DNA of 64,000 nucleotides from Escherichia coli (GCF_013122565.1 NZ_CP053258.1); one strand, 5' to 3'; positions 24,236-44,493 are shown, counted from the stretch's first letter. Translations and numbers: made by a program. The notes: generated from the sequence alone by a model not told the origin.

Positions 24236-25003
24236 TTAATGACGACAAATCTCATCAATCATGCATGTGAAATGGTTATGCAGCCATAAAAATGAAGCCG
24301 GGATAGCGGTAGAGACTTTAGCCGTGAGAAAACGTTCTGTCGCATCCTGCTTTCCTTCGCCAGTCACCAGTAACAAAACTTCGCGGGCATTGAGAATATC
24401 TTTCAGGCCTAAGGTGATCCCACGTGTCACGGGGCGACCCGCGGTTTTTAACATCTCATGTTGCTGTGTTCTGGCATCAAGATGACTGATATGGCAGGCC
24501 GGTTGCAGGCTTTCTCCCGGTTCGTTCAGCCCAAGGTGACCGTTTTTCCCCAATCCGAGAACGCATAAATCCAGACCGCCTTTGCGCGCAATCAGGTTCG
24601 TTACCCGTTCGCACTCTGTCTCATTTATCTCTTCGGAGCGAAAGCTGATGAGCTGGTCTTCACGTAGCCCCAGCGGCTGCACGATATGCTGTTGCAGGAA
24701 AGTTTCGCAGGTGCCAGGCATCGTTAATGGCAGATCCACCCATTCGTCGAGCTTCACGAAGGTGAGCTGGCTGACATCAACCTGCTGCTGGTGGATTTTT
24801 TCTACCAGATAATGATACGTCAGTAATGGCGTCGCTCCGGTCGCCAGGCAAATCACGGCATCCGATTTACTACGGATCACGGCCAATAAATATTCGCTGG
24901 CACGTTCACTTAACGCCGTATAGTTTTCAACTTGCTGAAGGGTTTGCACAGGATGAAATTCCTTAAGTAAAGAGGCACCGCCAGAAGCAGTGCCTCGTTC
25001 CAT
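24236..25003 (-). CDS. agaI: Galactosamine-6-phosphate deaminase/isomerase AgaI
   Basis: Track ORF, NagB-like sequence; last gene of the agaS-kbaY-agaBCDI operon. Confidence 0.85.
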   Translation of the reverse strand: MERGTASGGASLLKEFHPVQTLQQVENYTALSERASEYLLAVIRSKSDAVICLATGATPLLTYHYLVEKIHQQQVDVSQLTFVKLDEWVDLPLTMPGTCETFLQQHIVQPLGLREDQLISFRSEEINETECERVTNLIARKGGLDLCVLGLGKNGHLGLNEPGESLQPACHISHLDARTQQHEMLKTAGRPVTRGITLGLKDILNAREVLLLVTGEGKQDATERFLTAKVSTAIPASFLWLHNHFTCMIDEICRH

Positions 25004-36241: not shown

Positions 36242-36576
36242 TATTCGTCGTCGCCAATCTCATCATCAATGTTGACGTCCATGCCAGCGACAAGTTTCTT
36301 TCCTTGTTGAATGTCGAATGGACGAGTTTTTTGCGGGTTGTTCTGGATATCTGCATCCAGAAAACGCAAAAATGCATTCATAGTATGATCCTCCTGTTCA
36401 TCTCCCAGTCGGCACATAAATACTTGCCCACCAGGCAGAATTTCGTAATGAATGTTGTCCAAGCCTGGCTTCAGTTTTAAGGCCTCACGCACTGGCGCGG
36501 GGATAGTTGTTTGTCCGCGTATCGTGACCTTTGATTCAGTGGTCAGTACAGCGTGAGAGCGAGCATTAGCGGGCAT
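36241..36576 (-). CDS. prlF: Antitoxin PrlF (SohA), 111 aa
   Basis: MPANARSHAVLTTESKVTIRGQTTIPAPVREALKLKPG…; stop overlaps the yhaV ATG by 1 nt (TAATG); within track ORF 36241..36717. Confidence 0.9.
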   Translation of the reverse strand: MPANARSHAVLTTESKVTIRGQTTIPAPVREALKLKPGLDNIHYEILPGGQVFMCRLGDEQEDHTMNAFLRFLDADIQNNPQKTRPFDIQQGKKLVAGMDVNIDDEIGDDE

Positions 36577-36630: not shown

Positions 36631-36650
36631 GTAATGCAAATGCATTATTA
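36631..36650. promoter_or_regulatory. Palindromic operator upstream of prlF (probable PrlF-YhaV autoregulation site)
   Basis: taatgca-N-tgcatta perfect inverted repeat about 60 nt upstream of the prlF start. Confidence 0.5.
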
Positions 36651-37064
36651 GCAGCAGAAAGCGCCAGAACCAACGAAAAAAGAGAACATGTTTCCCATTT
36701 TGCGAGGCGCTTTCCAAATCGTCCGCTCAGTCCCCTCGCACGCCAGCGCTAAAACCACTATTTTGCAAATCTGTGACCTCCTTCACTCTCCATAAAGGCG
36801 GTGATCTAATGGTGTGGATCCACTTTCTGCTTTCGCTTGTCTGCCGTAAGCACTCGCTATTTCGTCATCTCTCCTTTTCACTTTTTCAGTTTGTCATTTT
36901 CATTTGCGGTCAACCGAAAGATCTGGAGTCGATTTTTCCAGGTTTCAACGCCGTTGTCGGGTTCACAAATTCACTTCTTTTCTTCTGATGTAATGCATTC
37001 AAAAGAAAATGAAAGTTTCAAAATGCAAGAATGCAACGAAATACTTTTTCAGGGAGCGATTAAC

Positions 37065-37835
37065 ATGCTAGATAGCCTAAGACGCCGCGAACAAATCATT
37101 GATTTGTTATGTGCCCAGGGAAGCGTACGCGTTGAGCCGCTCAGCATCCATTTTGGTGTCTCATCGGTCACGATCCGCAATGACTTACGGTATCTGGAGC
37201 AAAAAGGTTGCGTCATGCGTTCCTATGGCGGTGCCGTGTTGAATCAACACTTTGCGCTCGACAGACCCTTGCAGGATAAAGATCGCCTTAATCGAGATGT
37301 TAAAGTGCGAATTGCCGAAAAAGCAGCCAGTTTTGTCAAGGATGGCGATACATTAATTATCGATTCTGGTTCAACGACCACGCTAATTCCAGCTTCGCTA
37401 AAGGGGCGTCGGGATTTAGTCGTTATGACGAATGCCTTGAATATCGCCTGGGAAATGGCCAGTTTTGAACGGGTGGATGTTATGATCCTTGGTGGAAACG
37501 TTCGCCAGAGCGTCTTCTCCCTGTATGGGCCTTCGGCAGAACATCAACTCCGGCAGTATCGCTTTGATAAGCTGTTTCTGGGCGTGGACGGCTTTTGCCT
37601 TGAAGCAGGGATTACCACACCACATCCGGGTGAGGCACATCTGAACCAGGTAATGTGTCAGGTTGCTCAGGAAATCACAGTTGTCGCGGACTCCAGTAAA
37701 TTTGGCCGGAAAAGCTTCTGTATGATCGGCGAAGTGAGCGAGATAGATCGACTGATTACCGATAGTGGTATTCCGGATAATTACAAACACGCATTAACGC
37801 AAATGGGTGTGGAAGTTGTGATTGCAGATGAGTGA
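37065..37835 (+). CDS. DeoR-family regulator, AgaR paralog (256 aa)
   Basis: ATG at 37065 preceded by cagggag; HTH …VSSVTIRNDLRYLEQKG… nearly identical to the AgaR recognition helix; DeoR C-terminal domain. The track ORF 36837..37835 is an upstream extension. Confidence 0.8.
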   Translation: MLDSLRRREQIIDLLCAQGSVRVEPLSIHFGVSSVTIRNDLRYLEQKGCVMRSYGGAVLNQHFALDRPLQDKDRLNRDVKVRIAEKAASFVKDGDTLIIDSGSTTTLIPASLKGRRDLVVMTNALNIAWEMASFERVDVMILGGNVRQSVFSLYGPSAEHQLRQYRFDKLFLGVDGFCLEAGITTPHPGEAHLNQVMCQVAQEITVVADSSKFGRKSFCMIGEVSEIDRLITDSGIPDNYKHALTQMGVEVVIADE

Positions 37836-37879
37836 GAAAATGTGGCTGGAGATAAACGTCGCCAACCACATTGCGTTAT

Positions 37880-38791
37880 TTACGTTGTATGTTTGATTTG
37901 CAGTAAAGCCGCGCCTCGTACGCCGCTTGTCGCCCCATGAACGGCAGAAAATACGCGCGCAGGTTCCAGACCCGGAAGAAGGTAGCGCGTCATGGCTTTC
38001 GGCAATAAGGCATAAATCTCTTTAAAATTAGACAACCCACCGCCAAGAACAAATGCATCAACGTCGAGAATATGCTGCAATTGCGCCAGTGTACAACCAA
38101 CCATGTCTATCCAGGCGTTTATAGTGGTGATAGCACTGGAAATGCCATGTTGATGATTTTCTAATAATGTCTCCATAGTGATTTGCTCACCGCTGAAATG
38201 CTTATGTAACCAGAGCAAACCAGGGCCAGACTGGTAGCGTTCCACACACCCTTGCAAACCGCAGCCGCATTGTAATTCAGGAAGGTTATAGCGCCGCATA
38301 AATGTCGCCGGGAGCGGTAAATGACCAAACTCGCAGGCCATACGGTTACGGCCACGGTATAACTGGCCATCAATAACTAATCCCCCGCCCATACCCGTGC
38401 CGATAATCGCGCCAAAGATCCGGCTATATTGACGAGCTTGATCGGTATGCGCTTCTGATAGGGCGAAGCAACAGCAGTCATTATCCATTATTACCGGGCG
38501 GTTAAGGCGATTTGCCAGATCGGTTAATACCTGGCGTCCGGTCAGGCAGGGAACGTTAGAAGACAACAGTTTACCGGTGTGCCGATCCATAACGCCGGGC
38601 ATCCCGATACCTATTTTGCCTTGCGTACCCGTGGCCCAGTCAGCGGTATCAATCAGAGACACAAATGTGGATAGAAAAAGCGCGTAATCCTGAACAGGCG
38701 TAGCCACCCGCTTGCGCCAGCAAATTTGTAAATCCTGATCAAAGGCGACTATCTCTGTTTTGGTTCCGCCAATATCAACACCGTAAAACAT
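37880..38791 (-). CDS. ROK-family sugar kinase, NagK-like (303 aa)
   Basis: MFYGVDIGGTKTEIVAFD… N-terminal ATP-binding motif; Zn-binding CxCGxxGC motif (CGCGLQGC); same length as NagK. Confidence 0.8.
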   Translation of the reverse strand: MFYGVDIGGTKTEIVAFDQDLQICWRKRVATPVQDYALFLSTFVSLIDTADWATGTQGKIGIGMPGVMDRHTGKLLSSNVPCLTGRQVLTDLANRLNRPVIMDNDCCCFALSEAHTDQARQYSRIFGAIIGTGMGGGLVIDGQLYRGRNRMACEFGHLPLPATFMRRYNLPELQCGCGLQGCVERYQSGPGLLWLHKHFSGEQITMETLLENHQHGISSAITTINAWIDMVGCTLAQLQHILDVDAFVLGGGLSNFKEIYALLPKAMTRYLLPGLEPARVFSAVHGATSGVRGAALLQIKHTT

Positions 38792-38809
38792 CGCTCATCT
38801 CCTTTGGTT

Positions 38810-40066
38810 TCACAGCACAACCAGGGTATTTTCCTTGCGAGCGCGTTCGGCGGCAAAGACCATCAGGTGACTTTCAAGTGATTCATTGGGGCCTGAGAGG
38901 ATCAGGTTTTGATCGCCCGCTAATACCGCCTGAATAAAGCGATCCATCAGATAGTAATCCCCACCACCGTGACCCCCCATTTGGGTGCGATTACCCGCTT
39001 CGATCTCCTCAATGGTGTATATAGTTTGCTGGTCGGTGAGAAAATCAAAACACCGAATGGTGTTGCCATCCCCTTCCAGATAGCCTTTCGAACCAAAAAG
39101 GCGGGTTTTGCGATCTTCCATTTTCGTAAAGGCCGTCATTGTAAAAGTGACGCTCTGCTGATGCGCAAATTGCATGTTGACCACTTGATGATCGACAACA
39201 TTGTTATCGCAGCAATAAACGCAGCGACCATAGGGACCGTCACGTAGCGACTGACGAACGTTTTCTTCTGTGGGGTTTGCCGTTAACACGCGACGGAAGT
39301 GAGGCGTACATTTATGGGCATCACCAAGATAAATTTTGCATGCGGACCACGGGCAGGTAGCTTCGACCTGGCAATCAAGGCAGCGATCGGCTGCACCTTC
39401 GGGCTGGTTTTGCTTAATAAAATGGTTAAGGCCGCCAAATGAGGTAACACTTTTACAATTATCCCCCATGATGTAGCGGATCCAGTCCAGATCGTGGCAA
39501 GATTTTTGCAAAAGCATAAATGACGATTCAGCTTCGTTGCGCCAGTTACCACGTACAAAAGAGTGTGCCTGGTGCCAGTAACCGACGGGTTCGAGATGCT
39601 GCATACTGATAATGTCGCCAATGATGCCGCTGTCGAGTAAGGATTTGAGTTTTTGTGTATATCGGGTGTAACGAAGAACATGAGCCACCGCTAATAACAC
39701 ATGATTGCGTTTCACGGCATCAATAATGATACGGCAATCTGCAGCTGTCGGTGCTAACGGTTTTTCCAGCAGGATATGATATCCCAAATCAGCAAATGCA
39801 ACGGCAGGCTCTTTATGCATATTGTCTTGCGTACAAATGAGGACTACATCAGCCATTTTGGGGGCTTTTGCAGCTTCTTTCCAGTCACTAAAAATATTGT
39901 CTGAAGAGATATTATGCTGGGCTACAAATTGCTCTCGATAAACCTCTCTGGGTTCAGCAACACCTACAACTTGCATTCTGTCTGGATGTTCAAGAGCATA
40001 ACGGGAATATATTTCCCCTCGTGCACCTGCACCTATCACTAAAACAGAAACTTTGTTTTTATTCAT
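38810..40066 (-). CDS. Gfo/Idh/MocA-family NAD(P)-dependent oxidoreductase with an unusual Cys-rich segment (about 418 aa)
   Basis: N-terminal Rossmann motif VLVIGAGARG; C-terminal alpha/beta domain; Cys cluster CLDCQVEATCPWSACKIY…CTPHF…CVYCCDNN. Start taken at MNKNKVSVLVIGAG within track ORF 38810..40093. Confidence 0.7.
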   Translation of the reverse strand: MNKNKVSVLVIGAGARGEIYSRYALEHPDRMQVVGVAEPREVYREQFVAQHNISSDNIFSDWKEAAKAPKMADVVLICTQDNMHKEPAVAFADLGYHILLEKPLAPTAADCRIIIDAVKRNHVLLAVAHVLRYTRYTQKLKSLLDSGIIGDIISMQHLEPVGYWHQAHSFVRGNWRNEAESSFMLLQKSCHDLDWIRYIMGDNCKSVTSFGGLNHFIKQNQPEGAADRCLDCQVEATCPWSACKIYLGDAHKCTPHFRRVLTANPTEENVRQSLRDGPYGRCVYCCDNNVVDHQVVNMQFAHQQSVTFTMTAFTKMEDRKTRLFGSKGYLEGDGNTIRCFDFLTDQQTIYTIEEIEAGNRTQMGGHGGGDYYLMDRFIQAVLAGDQNLILSGPNESLESHLMVFAAERARKENTLVVL

Positions 40067-40104
40067 GGTGAAAAGACCTTCTGATAAATTCATCTGCTTG
40101 TTTT

Positions 40105-40863
40105 TTATAAATTACGAAAACTAACAAGATGAAATCCGCGTTTTTCAATCTCATATTTGAGTGACGACGTAGTCAGAACTGCTAGTTCTTCCAGTCGTTG
40201 GTAGCAGTAACTGCTCAACATTAAGGGGGTATCGATAAACCCTGGGTGACACATAATTTCCAGAGACTTATCATTAGTTTTTATGGCTCTATCAATAAGT
40301 GACAAGAAAAAGTCTTCTGAAATATTCTCATCGTAGAAATCACTGCTGAACCCATCACTACTTTTTACATTCCGCGAATCGATGTTTTTCTCTCGTAAAA
40401 CGGAACGGTCGATACGTAACGGTAAATTTTTCTCACGCGCGAAACGAGCGACGATGGGATAAACCTGCGGGATCATATGAACGCTGTGATGGCTGTCTAA
40501 ATGGGTGGGCTCCCGTTTAAATACATCAATAAAACGTTGATATTGAGAACTCAGTTCCTGTTCAATTTCGCCTAGGTTTAATTGCCCTTGCTCCGCAACC
40601 TCCCAAATCCATTTACCTAATCTACCTTCACGTGTCAGTGAAGGCATATCCGTTAAGGCAGCGCCATAGCTCAAAACAAAATGTAAACCGACGCCGAGTT
40701 GTGGGGTTTCGGCACTCAACGAGGCGGCATGATCAATTGCCGGAGCGTTCATCATCGCTGTTGTTGAGCGAACCACGCCATTCCGTACCGCCTCGATGAT
40801 TCCATAATTAATACCTTTGCTTAGTCCAAAATCGTCCGCATTCACAATTAATAAGCGTTGCAT
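40105..40863 (-). CDS. YdjC/ChbG-family carbohydrate deacetylase (252 aa)
   Basis: [25 protein letters not shown]…; conserved HxDSHH-type motif ([10 protein letters not shown]). Confidence 0.8.
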
Positions 40864-40875
40864 AAGGTATCCTTG

Positions 40876-42228
40876 TTACTGATGAGATTGGGTAAGTTCA
40901 GCAATAGTGCTGGAAAATTGAGGTAGATGTTTTTTATGGGCAATGATCAGTTCACGCACTAATTTTTCAGCGTCGTTATCCGAGGTCATTAGCGGGTTAA
41001 GACACAGAGCCAGCAGCGTATCGTTAAAGTTACCACTTATTGCCGCCCGGGCTGCCGCAATCTCAAAACATTTGATTGAATGAATGAGCCCCAGTACATT
41101 TTCGTCAAAATGAGTGAGACGCGGGTGGGGGGTAACACCGTTATTCCCCAGAATGCAGGTCATTTCAACGGTCCAGTCTTCAGGGATATTTTTTACACTG
41201 CCCTTGTGTGGAATATTAACGTAGTGTTCTGTTTGCGTGTCATTATAAATTGCATTAATAACGGCACAGGCTGCATCTGAATAATACGCACCACCACGCA
41301 GATCCAGTTCTTCAGGTTTTGTATTTAGTTCTGGGTCCTTATACAGCTCAAATAATTTCTTCTCTAATGCCTGCACGACTTGTGCACGAACGCCATTTTT
41401 ATAAAATTCCCCCATCTCAATGGCGAGCATTTCTTTATGTTTAAAATAGTAACGTAAGTAAGCACAGGGCAGGAGATTAAGTGCCCGAATTAAATTAGGA
41501 TTGAAGGTTAAACTGTCAATATTTTTGACGGTACTTCCTTCAAGCAGACCTTCAACGACGCCATCGAGCAATTCAGCAAAACGTGATTGTCCATTGACCC
41601 ATACGTCTTTAAGAAAGACCATATGATTTAAGCCAAATATGTCTATTGAAAGATCATCGTCCGCGCCAAGTTTTAGGGCATTGCGAACGAAGCTCTTCAT
41701 CCCAACAGGGACATTACAGACACCGATAAACCGTTTAAATTGGGTATGGCGGTACACGGCTTCAGTGACCATCCCGGCAGGATTGGTGAAATTAATAATC
41801 CAGGCATCGGGGCAAAGTTCTTCTACATCTTTGATAATATGAAAGATCACGGGGATGGTACGCAATCCGTTGAATAAACCGCCTGCGCCATTGGTTTCTT
41901 GCCCCAGATATCCCTGACTTAGTGGCATCAACTCATCCATTTCCCGCGCTTTTAATTGCCCGACCCGAAACTGTGTGGTGACAAAGTGCGCGCCCTGTAA
42001 TGCTGTGCGGCGGTCCAGGGTTTTCACTATTTTTAACGGAATGCCTGCTTTGACTACCATTCGCTGACAAAGGTCGAAAATAATGTCCAGCTTTTCTTTG
42101 CCTTCTTCAATATCAACTAGCCATAATTCACTGACCGGTAATTCATCGTAGCGTTTTATGAATCCTTCAAGGAGTTCTGGCGTATAGCTACTGCCACCGC
42201 CAATAGTAACGATTTTTAAATTTTTCAT
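40876..42228 (-). CDS. Glycoside hydrolase family 4 6-phospho-glycosidase, ChbF-like (450 aa)
   Basis: MKNLKIVTIGGGSSYTPEL… NAD-binding N-terminus; GH4 length and motifs. Confidence 0.85.
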   Translation of the reverse strand: MKNLKIVTIGGGSSYTPELLEGFIKRYDELPVSELWLVDIEEGKEKLDIIFDLCQRMVVKAGIPLKIVKTLDRRTALQGAHFVTTQFRVGQLKAREMDELMPLSQGYLGQETNGAGGLFNGLRTIPVIFHIIKDVEELCPDAWIINFTNPAGMVTEAVYRHTQFKRFIGVCNVPVGMKSFVRNALKLGADDDLSIDIFGLNHMVFLKDVWVNGQSRFAELLDGVVEGLLEGSTVKNIDSLTFNPNLIRALNLLPCAYLRYYFKHKEMLAIEMGEFYKNGVRAQVVQALEKKLFELYKDPELNTKPEELDLRGGAYYSDAACAVINAIYNDTQTEHYVNIPHKGSVKNIPEDWTVEMTCILGNNGVTPHPRLTHFDENVLGLIHSIKCFEIAAARAAISGNFNDTLLALCLNPLMTSDNDAEKLVRELIIAHKKHLPQFSSTIAELTQSHQ

Positions 42229-42305
42229 GTTACTTCCATACTCAATATTAAATTGACTTGTGATTCCATGTTTTTATCTAAACCTTGGCATGAAGACGCG
42301 TCCTA

Positions 42306-43667
42306 TTAAAACTTCAACGCATTTGCTATATCTTCTTCGCTTTCTTCTTTATTAATTTCGACTTGTGCTTTGTTTGAGATAATGACAAAGGGAAGATAAA
42401 CCATTGTGGCAACACCTAAGTTAAAGAGTGCCAGGAGTAATCCAGCAATGCTCCCATTTGAACTGAAGAATGCATTAAGTCCAGGGGGCATGGTCCAGGG
42501 GGCGATATTTGTTGATGGCGGAATAATACCCATGTTATAGGCGATTAAGGTAATCCCGGCGAGAATGGGTTGAATCATCACAAACGGAATTAACATAATG
42601 GGATTCATAATGATCGGCAAACCAAATAAAATAGGTTCGTTGATATTAAAGATACCAGAAGGTAACGCTAATTTAGCAACCTGACGATAATCCTCCCGGC
42701 GTGAGGCAATGAAAATAGCGAAAATGAGTCCCAGCGTTGCTCCTGTTCCACCGAGGAATACGTAAGCGTCAAGCATTGGCCCGGTCCAGAAATGGAAGGT
42801 TTTTCCTGCTTCCAGTGCCGCTTGTACCGAACCATATTGTGTATAAGTCGCAATATTTTCCAGACCCCAGGGACCCAGCGTGCTGCTTTGTAACGCAGTT
42901 AATACTAAACCGCCGTGGATACCAAAGAACCATAACAGGGAATTAAAGACAACGAATGTCCAGCCAACAATACTGCTCATTGACGTTAATGGCGTAGCCA
43001 GTGAGGTGATAATGACCTGATGGAAATTGGTGCCATATATCGACAATATGCCAGATAAACTCCCCATAATTAACAGGATAATAAACCCAGGCACCATTGC
43101 CGAGAATGAGCGTGATACTGCTGCCGGGACACTCGCGGGTAAACGAATCACCCAGTTGCGACGGATAATAAAAGCGAAAATTTCCGCTACAACTAATCCA
43201 ATGATCATACCAGACAGGATATTGGCTCCCCCCAGCCAGTTTGCGCCAATGACATTAGCAGTTTCTCCTGCTTTGAAGGGGGTGACGGTCATAAACGCTG
43301 CGACAGAGAGTAAGCCAACGGATAACGAATCAACTTTCCGTTCTTCGGCCAACCCCATCCCAATAAAAAAGGGGGTCATGAGTGACATAATGCCCAGCGT
43401 GCCATGATAAGCACTGTCACCGACGACGGTGAAGGCGCTTAAGGTTTTTATGGTCGATGGTTCCAGTCGGACGCCTAATGAATAAAAAAAGGAGCCTTCG
43501 CCAAAATCTAAAAAAACGCTATTAATGAGAACAAATAACGTACCGGCTAACGTTAATGGCATCATACGGATAAAACCGTTTTTTATTGCATTGACGTGAG
43601 GTTGTTTCCCTAATTTAACTGCAAAAGGAAGAATGAGTTTTTCAAGTAACGCCATCACTCCGGGCAT
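42306..43667 (-). CDS. PTS lactose/cellobiose-family EIIC permease, ChbC-like (about 450 aa)
   Basis: Polytopic membrane protein; conserved IIC core (…[22 protein letters not shown]…[11 protein letters not shown]); the exact start may be a few codons downstream. Confidence 0.85.
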
Positions 43668-43741
43668 AAAAATATCCTTATATACCGATTAATGTATCAC
43701 TTTGATTATTGTTGTAGATCAATCCTATTGATAGGGTAGGG

Positions 43742-44059
43742 TTACTTCTGTTGTTTTTTTATCATGGCAATGGCAGATTTTAATACGCCTAAACCATCAA
43801 TTTTCCCATATAACATTGAATCTATAACTTCCACTGGCTTTCCAGGTAATAAGCTTTGGATCTCTGATTGCATATAAGCAATTTGCGGTCCTAATAATAT
43901 AACATCAGCTTCCGGACCTTTCTCTGCAGCAACAGATTCGGAGAATGCTTCAATAATTACCGGCACATCATATTTTATTGCCTGCACTTTCATCTTAGAA
44001 ACTAGCAGAGATGTTGACATTCCCGCCGAGCAAAATAAATATATTCTTTTCTTTTCCAT
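43742..44059 (-). CDS. PTS lactose/cellobiose-family EIIB, ChbB-like (105 aa)
   Basis: [23 protein letters not shown]… with the phospho-acceptor Cys in the CSAGMSTS motif; start chosen within track ORF 43742..44122. Confidence 0.85.
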
Positions 44060-44493
44060 AGGGACTCCGGATATATTAAGGTATAATATATTTGTCATGC
44101 CATAAATGGCATATAATGCCACTTATAATTAATAAAACACCGATTTTTATATTGATTTCCTGAATGTCGTCTTTAGGTATTAATCTCAGGAGTTTCAGGA
44201 ACCATTGAATAATCTGGTTTATAGAATTGAATGTCAAGTTAGTGAAATGGTGGGAGTGCGGTAATAAAAATAGTGCGGCTTTCGGTTGGTTTCTTTTTTA
44301 TCAGAACGAAAAGTACAGTTAAAATGATTTCTGGATAAATTGAAGTTTTTTCAATGAATTACATTTTTGTCTGCCCGTGGGAATGAAAAAAACAATAATC
44401 AAAAAATACTTTAGATATGTGAGCGTTATCACTTCCTTTTTGTTGGGAAAACGGGGAAACACAGTCTCCCCATTTTCCGTTCATGCGAGGTCG

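Follow-up and report, generated by a model that had tools for sequence, protein, structure and literature searches.

Gene content of the garD-prlF junction

The window analysed here, a stretch of 64,000 nucleotides of Escherichia coli DNA, contains between prlF and garD an extra segment of 7,843 bp (36651-44493) with seven genes, which we propose to be a catabolic operon for an amino-sugar glycoside together with the gene of its repressor. The earlier note on this DNA, made from the sequence alone, had pointed out that garD lies next to prlF in K-12; the two genes are indeed 148 bp apart in K-12, and according to blastn of the K-12 junction against the window, 73 bp of that spacer are exchanged here for the extra segment, whose right edge is the garD stop codon. 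All seven open reading frames (ORFs) were found, intact, where the earlier note had placed them, and their assignment to families is upheld by the NCBIfam cut-offs (for AgaR, ChbG, ChbC and enzyme IIB, EIIB) and by Pfam.

The regulator gene (37065-37835, plus strand), which is convergent with the operon, encodes a DeoR-family repressor of the AgaR type, a second agaR: its resemblance to AgaR, noticed earlier, is confirmed by a score of 363 bits with the NCBIfam AgaR equivalog NF040755 (cut-off 260), and it is 43% identical to the window's own AgaR. The genes of the operon are on the minus strand, with intergenic gaps of 11 to 77 bp, the 77-bp gap lying between the genes for enzyme IIC (EIIC) and for a family 4 glycoside hydrolase (GH4). 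The operon begins with a ChbB-like EIIB of the phosphotransferase system (PTS) that has the FCSAGMSTS motif with the active-site cysteine (43742-44059; NCBIfam PRK10499, 190 bits, cut-off 157), followed by a ChbC-like EIIC of the lactose/cellobiose family (42306-43667; PRK10297, 807 bits, cut-off 760), a ChbF-like GH4 6-phospho-beta-glycosidase (40876-42228; 74% identity with K-12 ChbF) with the motifs GGGSS, VCNVP and GLNH, and a ChbG-like (YdjC) chito-oligosaccharide de-N-acetylase (40105-40863; PRK02134, 352 bits, cut-off 227) with the motifs NADDFG, GLHF and LDSHH. Next comes a Gfo/Idh/MocA-fold enzyme, hereafter Gfo (38810-40066), a candidate NAD-dependent glycosidase resembling family GH109; Pfam recognises its N- and C-terminal domains (PF01408 and PF02894), and NCBIfam matches are weak and N-terminal only. 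A longer start, up to 40093, is possible for this ORF; its homologues begin at 40066. The last gene (37880-38791) encodes a ROK-family N-acetylhexosamine (HexNAc) kinase with the motifs DIGGT and CGCGLQGC, whose nearest solved structures are those of NagK (7p7i, 2ap1 and 4db3, E ~1e-75); the description of this protein as NagK-like holds, yet its score with the NCBIfam NagK model, 310 bits, is under the cut-off of 380.

No integrase, transposase or insertion sequence (IS) element is present among the ORFs of the segment, in agreement with the earlier note, and we also found no tRNA gene or Rfam family at the segment, no repeats of at least 9 nt flanking it and no match in a PADLOC search for defence systems. 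In RefSeq, the products of the homologous island are labelled "chbC", "6-phospho-beta-glucosidase", "chbG", "Gfo/Idh/MocA family protein", "ROK family protein" and a second "agaR", so that equivalog naming leads to two neighbouring agaR genes (window 34913-35722 and 37065-37835). The chitobiose-specific names chbC and chbG probably overstate what is known of the EIIC and the deacetylase of the island.

Exchange of an ABC transporter for a chb-like cassette

The likeness to the chb operon that the earlier note had remarked on is borne out by identities with K-12 of 81% for ChbB, 74% for ChbC, 74% for ChbF and 59% for ChbG, and the GC content of this half of the operon falls to 34-45%. The reported absence of ChbA and ChbR was likewise confirmed, tblastn with K-12 ChbA having found no homologue anywhere in the 64-kb window, and no AraC-family ORF, as expected for ChbR, being present in the island. 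Since chbA is near-universal in E. coli (5,394 of the 5,426 complete genomes) and the EIIB is 81% identical to ChbB, the enzyme IIA (EIIA) for the island plausibly comes from elsewhere. The nearest relatives of the ChbG-like protein (63-69% identity) sit in complete chbBCARFG operons, namely the canonical locus of Superficieibacter and a rare second chb operon of Salmonella, and the cassette as a whole is slightly nearer to these lineages than to K-12, and near to none. The second Salmonella operon, the chb lineage nearest to the island cassette, is complete and is found in some Salmonella enterica between frdD and blc (L096/L097:5589-10759).

Loci of another type occupy the junction between the gar genes and agaR-kbaZ in related bacteria. 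They carry an ATP-binding cassette (ABC) transporter in the order substrate-binding protein (SBP), permease, permease, MalK, followed by Gfo and ROK and by a convergent DeoR gene; we found them in an Escherichia-like genome (L011), Citrobacter werkmanii (L015), Enterobacteriaceae RIT691 (L016) and two metagenomic contigs (L012 and L099), and in none of the complete E. coli genomes. The nearest solved relatives of their SBP (Lmo0181, AbnE, maltose-type) are uninformative on the ligand. The window and L011 become homologous at the Gfo start (window 40058). The promoter/operator core of the island operon is homologous to the DNA preceding the SBP gene, with E values of 1.6e-11 (L011) and 8e-9 (L015), only the operator part being homologous in L012, and the sequence upstream of the island operon bears no resemblance to the promoter of chb in K-12 or Superficieibacter or to that of the second chb operon in Salmonella. 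For Gfo, ROK and DeoR, the two PTS-type alleles described below are mutual closest relatives, apart from all ABC-type alleles. The break in homology at the Gfo start, the SBP-type rather than chb-type promoter and the kinship of the alleles together show a single exchange of the four ABC genes for chbB-chbC-chbF-chbG under a retained control region. Gfo-ROK-DeoR is the ancestral conserved core of the junction, which normally follows an ABC transporter. The earlier note had seen an oxidoreductase and a kinase added to a chb operon; its order of events is thus to be turned round, a chb cassette having replaced the ABC transporter in front of an ancestral Gfo-ROK pair. Such a change of transporter class with promoter and operator kept is a clean example of modular pathway evolution.

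The candidate sigma-70 promoter of the operon, TTGACA-17 nt-GATTAT (44209-44237, minus strand), is the best consensus match in the region (10/12), is kept between the diverged alleles and is homologous to the SBP-gene promoter of the ABC-type loci. Upstream of its -35 element lies a putative operator, CTTTTCGTTCTGATAAAAAAGAAACCAACCGAAAG (44279-44313, minus strand), which is conserved between the alleles and in the ABC-type L011, L015 and L012, and which resembles AgaR half-sites; the shared promoter core consists of the operator-like block TTTTCRTT...GAAACC-ACCGAAAG, the -35 element TTGACA and the -10 element GATTAT. Presumptive AgaR-type operator repeats, CCTTTTCACTTTTTCAGTTT...CGAAAG, are also found upstream of the regulator gene (36873-36920, plus strand), where the core block is kept in the window, in L001 (an E. 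coli genome with the other allele), in L011 and in the Citrobacter locus L015. In density of the words TTTCRTTT/CTTTCG, 36650-37100 ranks third within the 64 kb, behind the agaR-kbaZ and agaS promoters.

These data bear on whether the segment is simply a second operon for chitobiose or chito-oligosaccharides, in which the PTS, the ChbG-like enzyme and the GH4 enzyme handle (GlcNAc)2-3 (GlcNAc, N-acetylglucosamine), the kinase phosphorylates GlcNAc, and Gfo and the AgaR-type regulator are merely carried over from the recipient operon and bring no new specificity. The identities with the Chb proteins given above and the equivalog cut-offs reached by ChbC, ChbG and EIIB speak for this, as does the kinase, whose nearest solved relatives are GlcNAc kinases; the K-12 chb pathway depends on a NagK encoded elsewhere, and in the csnR-K cluster of Streptomyces a GH4 enzyme and a ROK kinase suffice for glucosamine oligomers. 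We nevertheless consider a second chitobiose operon unlikely, since a chb operon is already present in nearly all E. coli, since neither the chb promoter nor ChbR was kept and control now lies with an AgaR-type promoter and operator, and since Gfo has a dN/dS of 0.10 after the fusion, as measured between the two PTS-type alleles, which are each other's closest relatives. The core module is, moreover, tied across phyla to the tagatose/N-acetylgalactosamine (GalNAc) route and not to NagB-type GlcNAc catabolism (see below).

Occurrence, alleles and selection

At the prlF-garD junction, the PTS-type island was matched in three of the 5,426 complete E. coli genomes (goat, bovine and human isolates), at 92.7% identity; the flanking garD-garP region matches 5,425 of them at 95-99+%. 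As the best match to the island is only 92.7% identical, the allele in the window is a second, diverged one. Compared with each other, the two form a mosaic, with blocks of 83-88% and of 99% identity, and all seven genes are intact in both. Between them, dN/dS is 0.089 for the DeoR regulator, 0.082 for the ROK kinase, 0.10 for Gfo, 0.159 for the ChbG-like protein, 0.053 for GH4, 0.015 for EIIC and 0.019 for EIIB, that is 0.015-0.16 for the seven genes, with dS of up to 0.65, which indicates that all of them are under purifying selection, Gfo also after its fusion to the chb-like genes. Seven intact genes with such ratios do not show the wide inactivation that the earlier note had named as a finding that would count against it. 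In one assembly (GCA_030511265.1), an IS1 InsA fragment just upstream of the GH4 gene forms the end of the contig (L010:1-517), which lacks EIIB and EIIC; the PTS genes of this strain may have been disrupted by IS1.

The rarity of the island, the lack of an EIIA gene in the window, the IS1 fragment standing in place of EIIB and EIIC in that assembly and a nonsense codon in the neighbouring yhaV could all be taken to mean that the region is cryptic or decaying, its PTS being non-functional without an EIIA or a dedicated activator, and is being lost from E. coli. We regard this as very improbable, because both alleles and the other assemblies seen have all seven genes in intact form, because dN/dS is low despite the high dS and because the promoter and operator blocks are conserved; in addition, the near-universal ChbA of E. 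coli could serve an EIIB that is 81% identical to its own partner. The word "island" used by the earlier note implies an insertion; an old region lost from most E. coli and exchanged by homologous recombination fits the data better.

A widespread family of Gfo/Idh/MocA-fold enzymes

Gfo, a protein of 418 residues, belongs to a large, unnamed subfamily with about 60% identity across phyla, encoded in at least 595 genomes in a scan of one genome per species, among them Citrobacter, Serratia, Vibrio, Chloroflexi, Planctomycetes, Verrucomicrobia/Lentisphaerae, Actinobacteria, Deinococcus and Thorarchaeota. Mean column identity is 66% in an alignment of 24 diverse members, in all of which EKP, HSFVRGNWRN, four cysteines and GHGGGD are invariant. 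We found no characterised member of the subfamily in the literature. An insertion of about 70 residues (residues ~222-290) holds the invariant Cys229, Cys232, Cys238 and Cys282 and the nearly invariant Cys286; it is kept as far as Thorarchaeota metagenome-assembled genomes, has no counterpart in GH109 or in the remaining solved Gfo/Idh/MocA proteins, and could be a site for a metal. Kinases of four unrelated families follow Gfo in different loci, namely ROK, which is its commonest immediate neighbour outside the Enterobacteriaceae as well, BadF-type, GalK-type (in loci that also carry a GlmU-N-like nucleotidyltransferase) and APH/NahK-like (in loci with a GalT-like transferase), so that Gfo most likely yields a free sugar of the hexosamine type. 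No other glycosidase is encoded in the minimal ABC-type loci.

Several comparisons link Gfo with GH109, a family of NAD-dependent alpha-N-acetylgalactosaminidases. When its C-terminal 99 residues were compared with 177,635 PDB sequences, the best match was AmGH109A, at its GGHGG loop; a profile built from residues 180-418 matched only 11 PDB sequences at E<10, including both GH109 and both GH188 proteins, at the same loop, which this profile did not find in any ordinary Gfo/Idh/MocA dehydrogenase in the PDB. The GGHGG loop provides the GH109 catalytic acid/base, according to the title of a work cited in the GH188 paper (PMC10755693). With a greedier setting, hhalign aligned Gfo and GH109 end to end and placed H191 on His259, H366 on His404 and GNWRNE on GAWRPE, the GH109 side consisting of one full GH109 protein and of the 6t2b and 2ixa sequences rebuilt from printed alignments. 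H191, which falls on His259 of AmGH109A, is invariant in the family; a histidine here is common across the whole superfamily. Gfo is thus more likely to be a GH109-like glycosidase with NAD as cofactor than a sugar dehydrogenase. The oxidoreductase of the earlier note remains valid as a fold assignment, and the GH109-like motifs suggest that the implied dehydrogenase activity on a sugar is probably wrong. Because no significant full-length similarity to GH109 was obtained, and because Gfo has the four-cysteine insertion and no signal peptide, we do not file it in GH109; the lack of a signal peptide also means that it would be cytoplasmic.

No near relative of Gfo has a solved structure: the best PDB sequence matches to the whole protein, YjhC/NanY (E 6e-17) and RgNanOx, cover its N-terminal half only, and Foldseek with an AlphaFold2 model (pLDDT 85) matched YjhC, NanOx and the NAD-dependent GH188 sulfoquinovosidases at 12-20% identity. 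NanY/YjhC converts 2,7-anhydro-N-acetylneuraminic acid (2,7-anhydro-Neu5Ac) to Neu5Ac, and Gfo could by analogy act on a monosaccharide that is modified or locked (an anhydro-, keto- or epimeric HexNAc, for example) and yield GalNAc or GlcNAc, instead of cleaving a glycoside; the ABC-type loci would import that monosaccharide and the PTS-type island a beta-HexNAc glycoside of it. This would account for the keeping of both GH4 and Gfo, and it agrees with the position of the kinase directly after Gfo in most of the informative loci and with the logic of nanXY, a transporter and an oxidoreductase that feed a standard pathway. Against it stand the low identity of all such matches (15-20%) and the C-terminal loop, which is matched in GH109 and GH188 and not in YjhC or NanOx. 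CUT1-type ABC systems, furthermore, usually carry oligosaccharides, and we know of no natural anhydro- or keto-GalNAc nutrient. We therefore think a conversion of this kind rather unlikely, and prefer to regard Gfo as a glycosidase.

A census of the larger neighbours of Gfo revealed no constant partner glycosidase, only scattered GH123, GH116, GH29 and hexosaminidase-related domains. A second Gfo paralogue of Citrobacter youngae (L026:5572-11254), 56% identical, lies beside a GH116-family protein, in a context other than that of the aga-linked copy. A recurrent neighbourhood in Chloroflexi/Anaerolineae (L005, L006, L019, L021 and L083) combines Gfo with GH114, a two-component system and an M20 peptidase; GH114 being the endo-alpha-1,4-polygalactosaminidase family, the combination may point to polygalactosamine or Pel-type polymers. 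In Vibrio sp. SS-MA-C1-2 (L004:9001-12500) and in L030/L051, the gene after Gfo encodes a 1-kinase-type enzyme (APH/NahK-like or GalK-family), and a hexose-1-phosphate uridylyltransferase or GlmU-N-like transferase is also present, an arrangement that resembles salvage to a UDP-sugar rather than aga catabolism.

Association with GalNAc catabolism

The surroundings of the Gfo module point to the GalNAc pathway. It lies beside AgaS, KbaZ and KbaY in Serratia and a related genome, beside kbaZ-agaS-kbaY in Vibrio profundi and next to a full aga cluster in Photobacterium; in Citrobacter, Escherichia-like genomes, Serratia and Photobacterium, the combination of Gfo, ROK and an AgaR-type repressor adjoins aga genes. 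In Ktedonobacter and Deinococcus, Gfo is found near AgaS and a PfkB hexose-phosphate kinase, in some cases with an aldolase too, and in Lentisphaerae and Opitutales near NagA. Neighbours of the tagatose type, kinase and aldolase, argue for a galacto-configured sugar rather than GlcNAc. The earlier note had guessed at a GalNAc/GlcNAc substrate from the regulator and the adjacent aga locus; the link to GalNAc has a further basis in conserved synteny across phyla. In the window itself the aga/gam cluster (24236-34664) is complete: both agaW and agaA are intact, and it includes agaBCD-agaI, whereas K-12 has the agaW'-agaA' deletion.

Flanking features

An inverted repeat directly after the garD stop codon (44446-44478, minus strand), kept between the alleles, is probably the garD terminator. 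On the other side, the toxin gene yhaV (35780-36241, minus strand) has, relative to K-12, an in-frame stop at codon 41 (Q41*), and the antitoxin gene prlF (36241-36576) is intact. In the genomes with the other allele (L001, L008 and L009; E. coli R32_14_1F, EC42405 and relatives), prlF-yhaV is wholly missing, the 800-bp stretch absent between agaR and the island corresponding to window 35769-36568.

Discussion

Our analysis suggests that the segment is one catabolic operon with its repressor, dedicated to a GalNAc-containing glycoside capped by a beta-HexNAc residue and feeding the adjacent aga/gam pathway; we put the probability of this reading at roughly 0.5. According to this model, EIIC and EIIB would bring in the glycoside with phosphorylation of its non-reducing HexNAc at O6; the phosphate would reach them via enzyme I, HPr and an EIIA encoded elsewhere, most plausibly chromosomal ChbA. 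The ChbG-like enzyme would then take off the N-acetyl group, and GH4 would cut the beta-bond to give hexosamine-6-phosphate and the rest of the molecule, from which Gfo, as a cytoplasmic GH109-like glycosidase with NAD as catalytic cofactor, would free GalNAc. The NagK-like ROK kinase would convert this to GalNAc-6-phosphate, which the neighbouring AgaA, AgaS and KbaYZ would take to triose phosphates, and the AgaR-type repressor would control the operon and its own gene via the operators with TTTC/GAAA repeats. Uptake, de-N-acetylation, GH4 cleavage and phosphorylation by the kinase, in this order, had been predicted in the earlier note and are still the most economical reading, to which the proposed glycosidase step of Gfo, missing there, would be added. 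That note had also predicted an N-acetylhexosamine disaccharide or glycoside as substrate; a glycoside is retained, whereas the GH109-like motifs of Gfo suggest something larger than a simple disaccharide. The retention of both GH4 and Gfo suggests further that the substrate of the PTS-type island is one beta-HexNAc longer than that imported by the ABC-type loci. In Serratia and Rahnella-like loci, a gene of the GH123 beta-N-acetylgalactosaminidase family, with no evident signal peptide, adjoins the ABC-type operon and would be a parallel way to remove the beta-HexNAc cap. Mucin core-3-type fragments, LacdiNAc-related structures and microbial GalNAc polymers are candidate substrates on which we can only speculate.

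Several observations weigh against the glycoside model. The GGHGG loop matches taken alone have E values of 0.4-2, the default hhalign comparison of Gfo with GH109 was significant over the NAD domain only (probability 98%), and Tyr226 of GH109 falls in an insertion and has no counterpart in Gfo. Outside Proteobacteria, Chloroflexi and Deinococcus, the neighbourhoods of Gfo vary widely. At 74-81% identity to the true Chb proteins, the chb-like proteins could have chitobiose itself as their substrate, and once GH4 has cleaved, a second glycosidase is needed only for trisaccharide-like substrates. The window encodes no EIIA, and expression of chromosomal chbA requires induction of the chb operon, so that uptake by the island may be limited. 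Lastly, the operator function of the repeat blocks at both promoters is deduced from word clustering and conservation.

For the family as a whole, we advance more tentatively the possibility that Gfo represents a large, unrecognised group of cytoplasmic glycosidases with NAD as cofactor, related to GH109 but distinct from it, which free GalNAc from imported glycans; we would call this proposal doubtful rather than probable at present. If it is true, Gfo would be a missing first step in the catabolism of GalNAc oligosaccharides and the exchange in the island is a natural experiment, extending the pathway to beta-HexNAc-capped substrates such as, speculatively, mucin core-3-type GlcNAc-beta1,3-GalNAc-alpha-R. 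Its confirmation would establish a new family of glycoside hydrolases and close a gap in the breakdown of GalNAc glycans in many phyla.

The earlier note had called the cluster uncharacterised, and a literature search, which did not take in the GalNAc regulon reconstruction of Leyn et al. (2012), found no published characterisation or description of this gene combination. The building blocks are known (chb PTS, ChbG, ChbF, NagK-like kinase and AgaR-type repressor); the combination, for which no description was found, appears to be new. Its wider interest lies in the passage from ABC to PTS uptake under a conserved promoter and in a testable function for a widespread enzyme of the conserved-unknown kind. 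For E. coli, it is a rare accessory pathway that may open up a host- or microbe-derived amino-sugar glycan closed to ordinary strains.

Comparison with known systems

The island shares with K-12 chbBCARFG, the PTS operon for N,N'-diacetylchitobiose, the genes for EIIB, EIIC, GH4 and the YdjC de-N-acetylase, in the same order and with the catalytic motifs kept. It differs from it by the absence of chbA (EIIA) and of the AraC-type regulator gene chbR, by a promoter unrelated to that of chb, by its fusion to the Gfo and ROK genes under an AgaR-type DeoR repressor, and by its position at the garD-agaR junction, the chb operon being at the katE-osmE locus.

In Streptomyces, csnR-K serves for chitosan oligomers and comprises a ROK-family regulator, the ABC transporter CsnEFG, the GH4 enzyme CsnH and the ROK kinase CsnK. 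The use of a GH4 hydrolase and a ROK kinase for hexosamine oligosaccharides is common to both systems, whereas csn has ABC uptake and a ROK-family repressor, and no Gfo, ChbG or PTS. A reading of CsnH as a Gfo-type enzyme was dropped, the papers giving CsnH as GH4 and CsnK as the ROK kinase, and the cluster serves as an analogy only.

Like nanXY (yjhBC), the island would combine an accessory transporter with an NAD-cofactor enzyme that feeds a core amino-sugar pathway; YjhC, however, is 15-17% identical to Gfo, has no match to the C-terminal loop and belongs to another sugar pathway. The GH188 enzymes (SqgA, 8qc2/8qc3) differ from Gfo in their loop, GAHHG, in the sulfonate-binding residues, which Gfo lacks, and in pathway context. 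Compared with GH109 (Elizabethkingia meningoseptica NagA, 2ixa; Akkermansia AmGH109A, 6t2b), Gfo has EKP where GH109 has EVP, contains the four-cysteine insertion and has neither a signal peptide nor an equivalent of Tyr226, but it shares the Gfo/Idh/MocA fold, the tie to GalNAc and, in register, the histidine of the GGHGG-x-D loop, a second histidine that opens the H-x-L...Y-M helix, and the G-x-W-R-x-E motif.

With respect to the aga/gam regulon, the regulator of the island is only 43% identical to E. coli AgaR, uptake is by a PTS of the Lac/Chb family (by an ABC transporter in the relatives) and not by the mannose-family AgaVWEF or AgaBCD, and a cytoplasmic kinase and a Gfo step are added that the classical regulon lacks. 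The regulator nevertheless passes the AgaR model, the promoters of the island carry operator-like sites with TTTC/GAAA repeats, and the island adjoins a complete aga cluster, an adjacency that is conserved in other genera.

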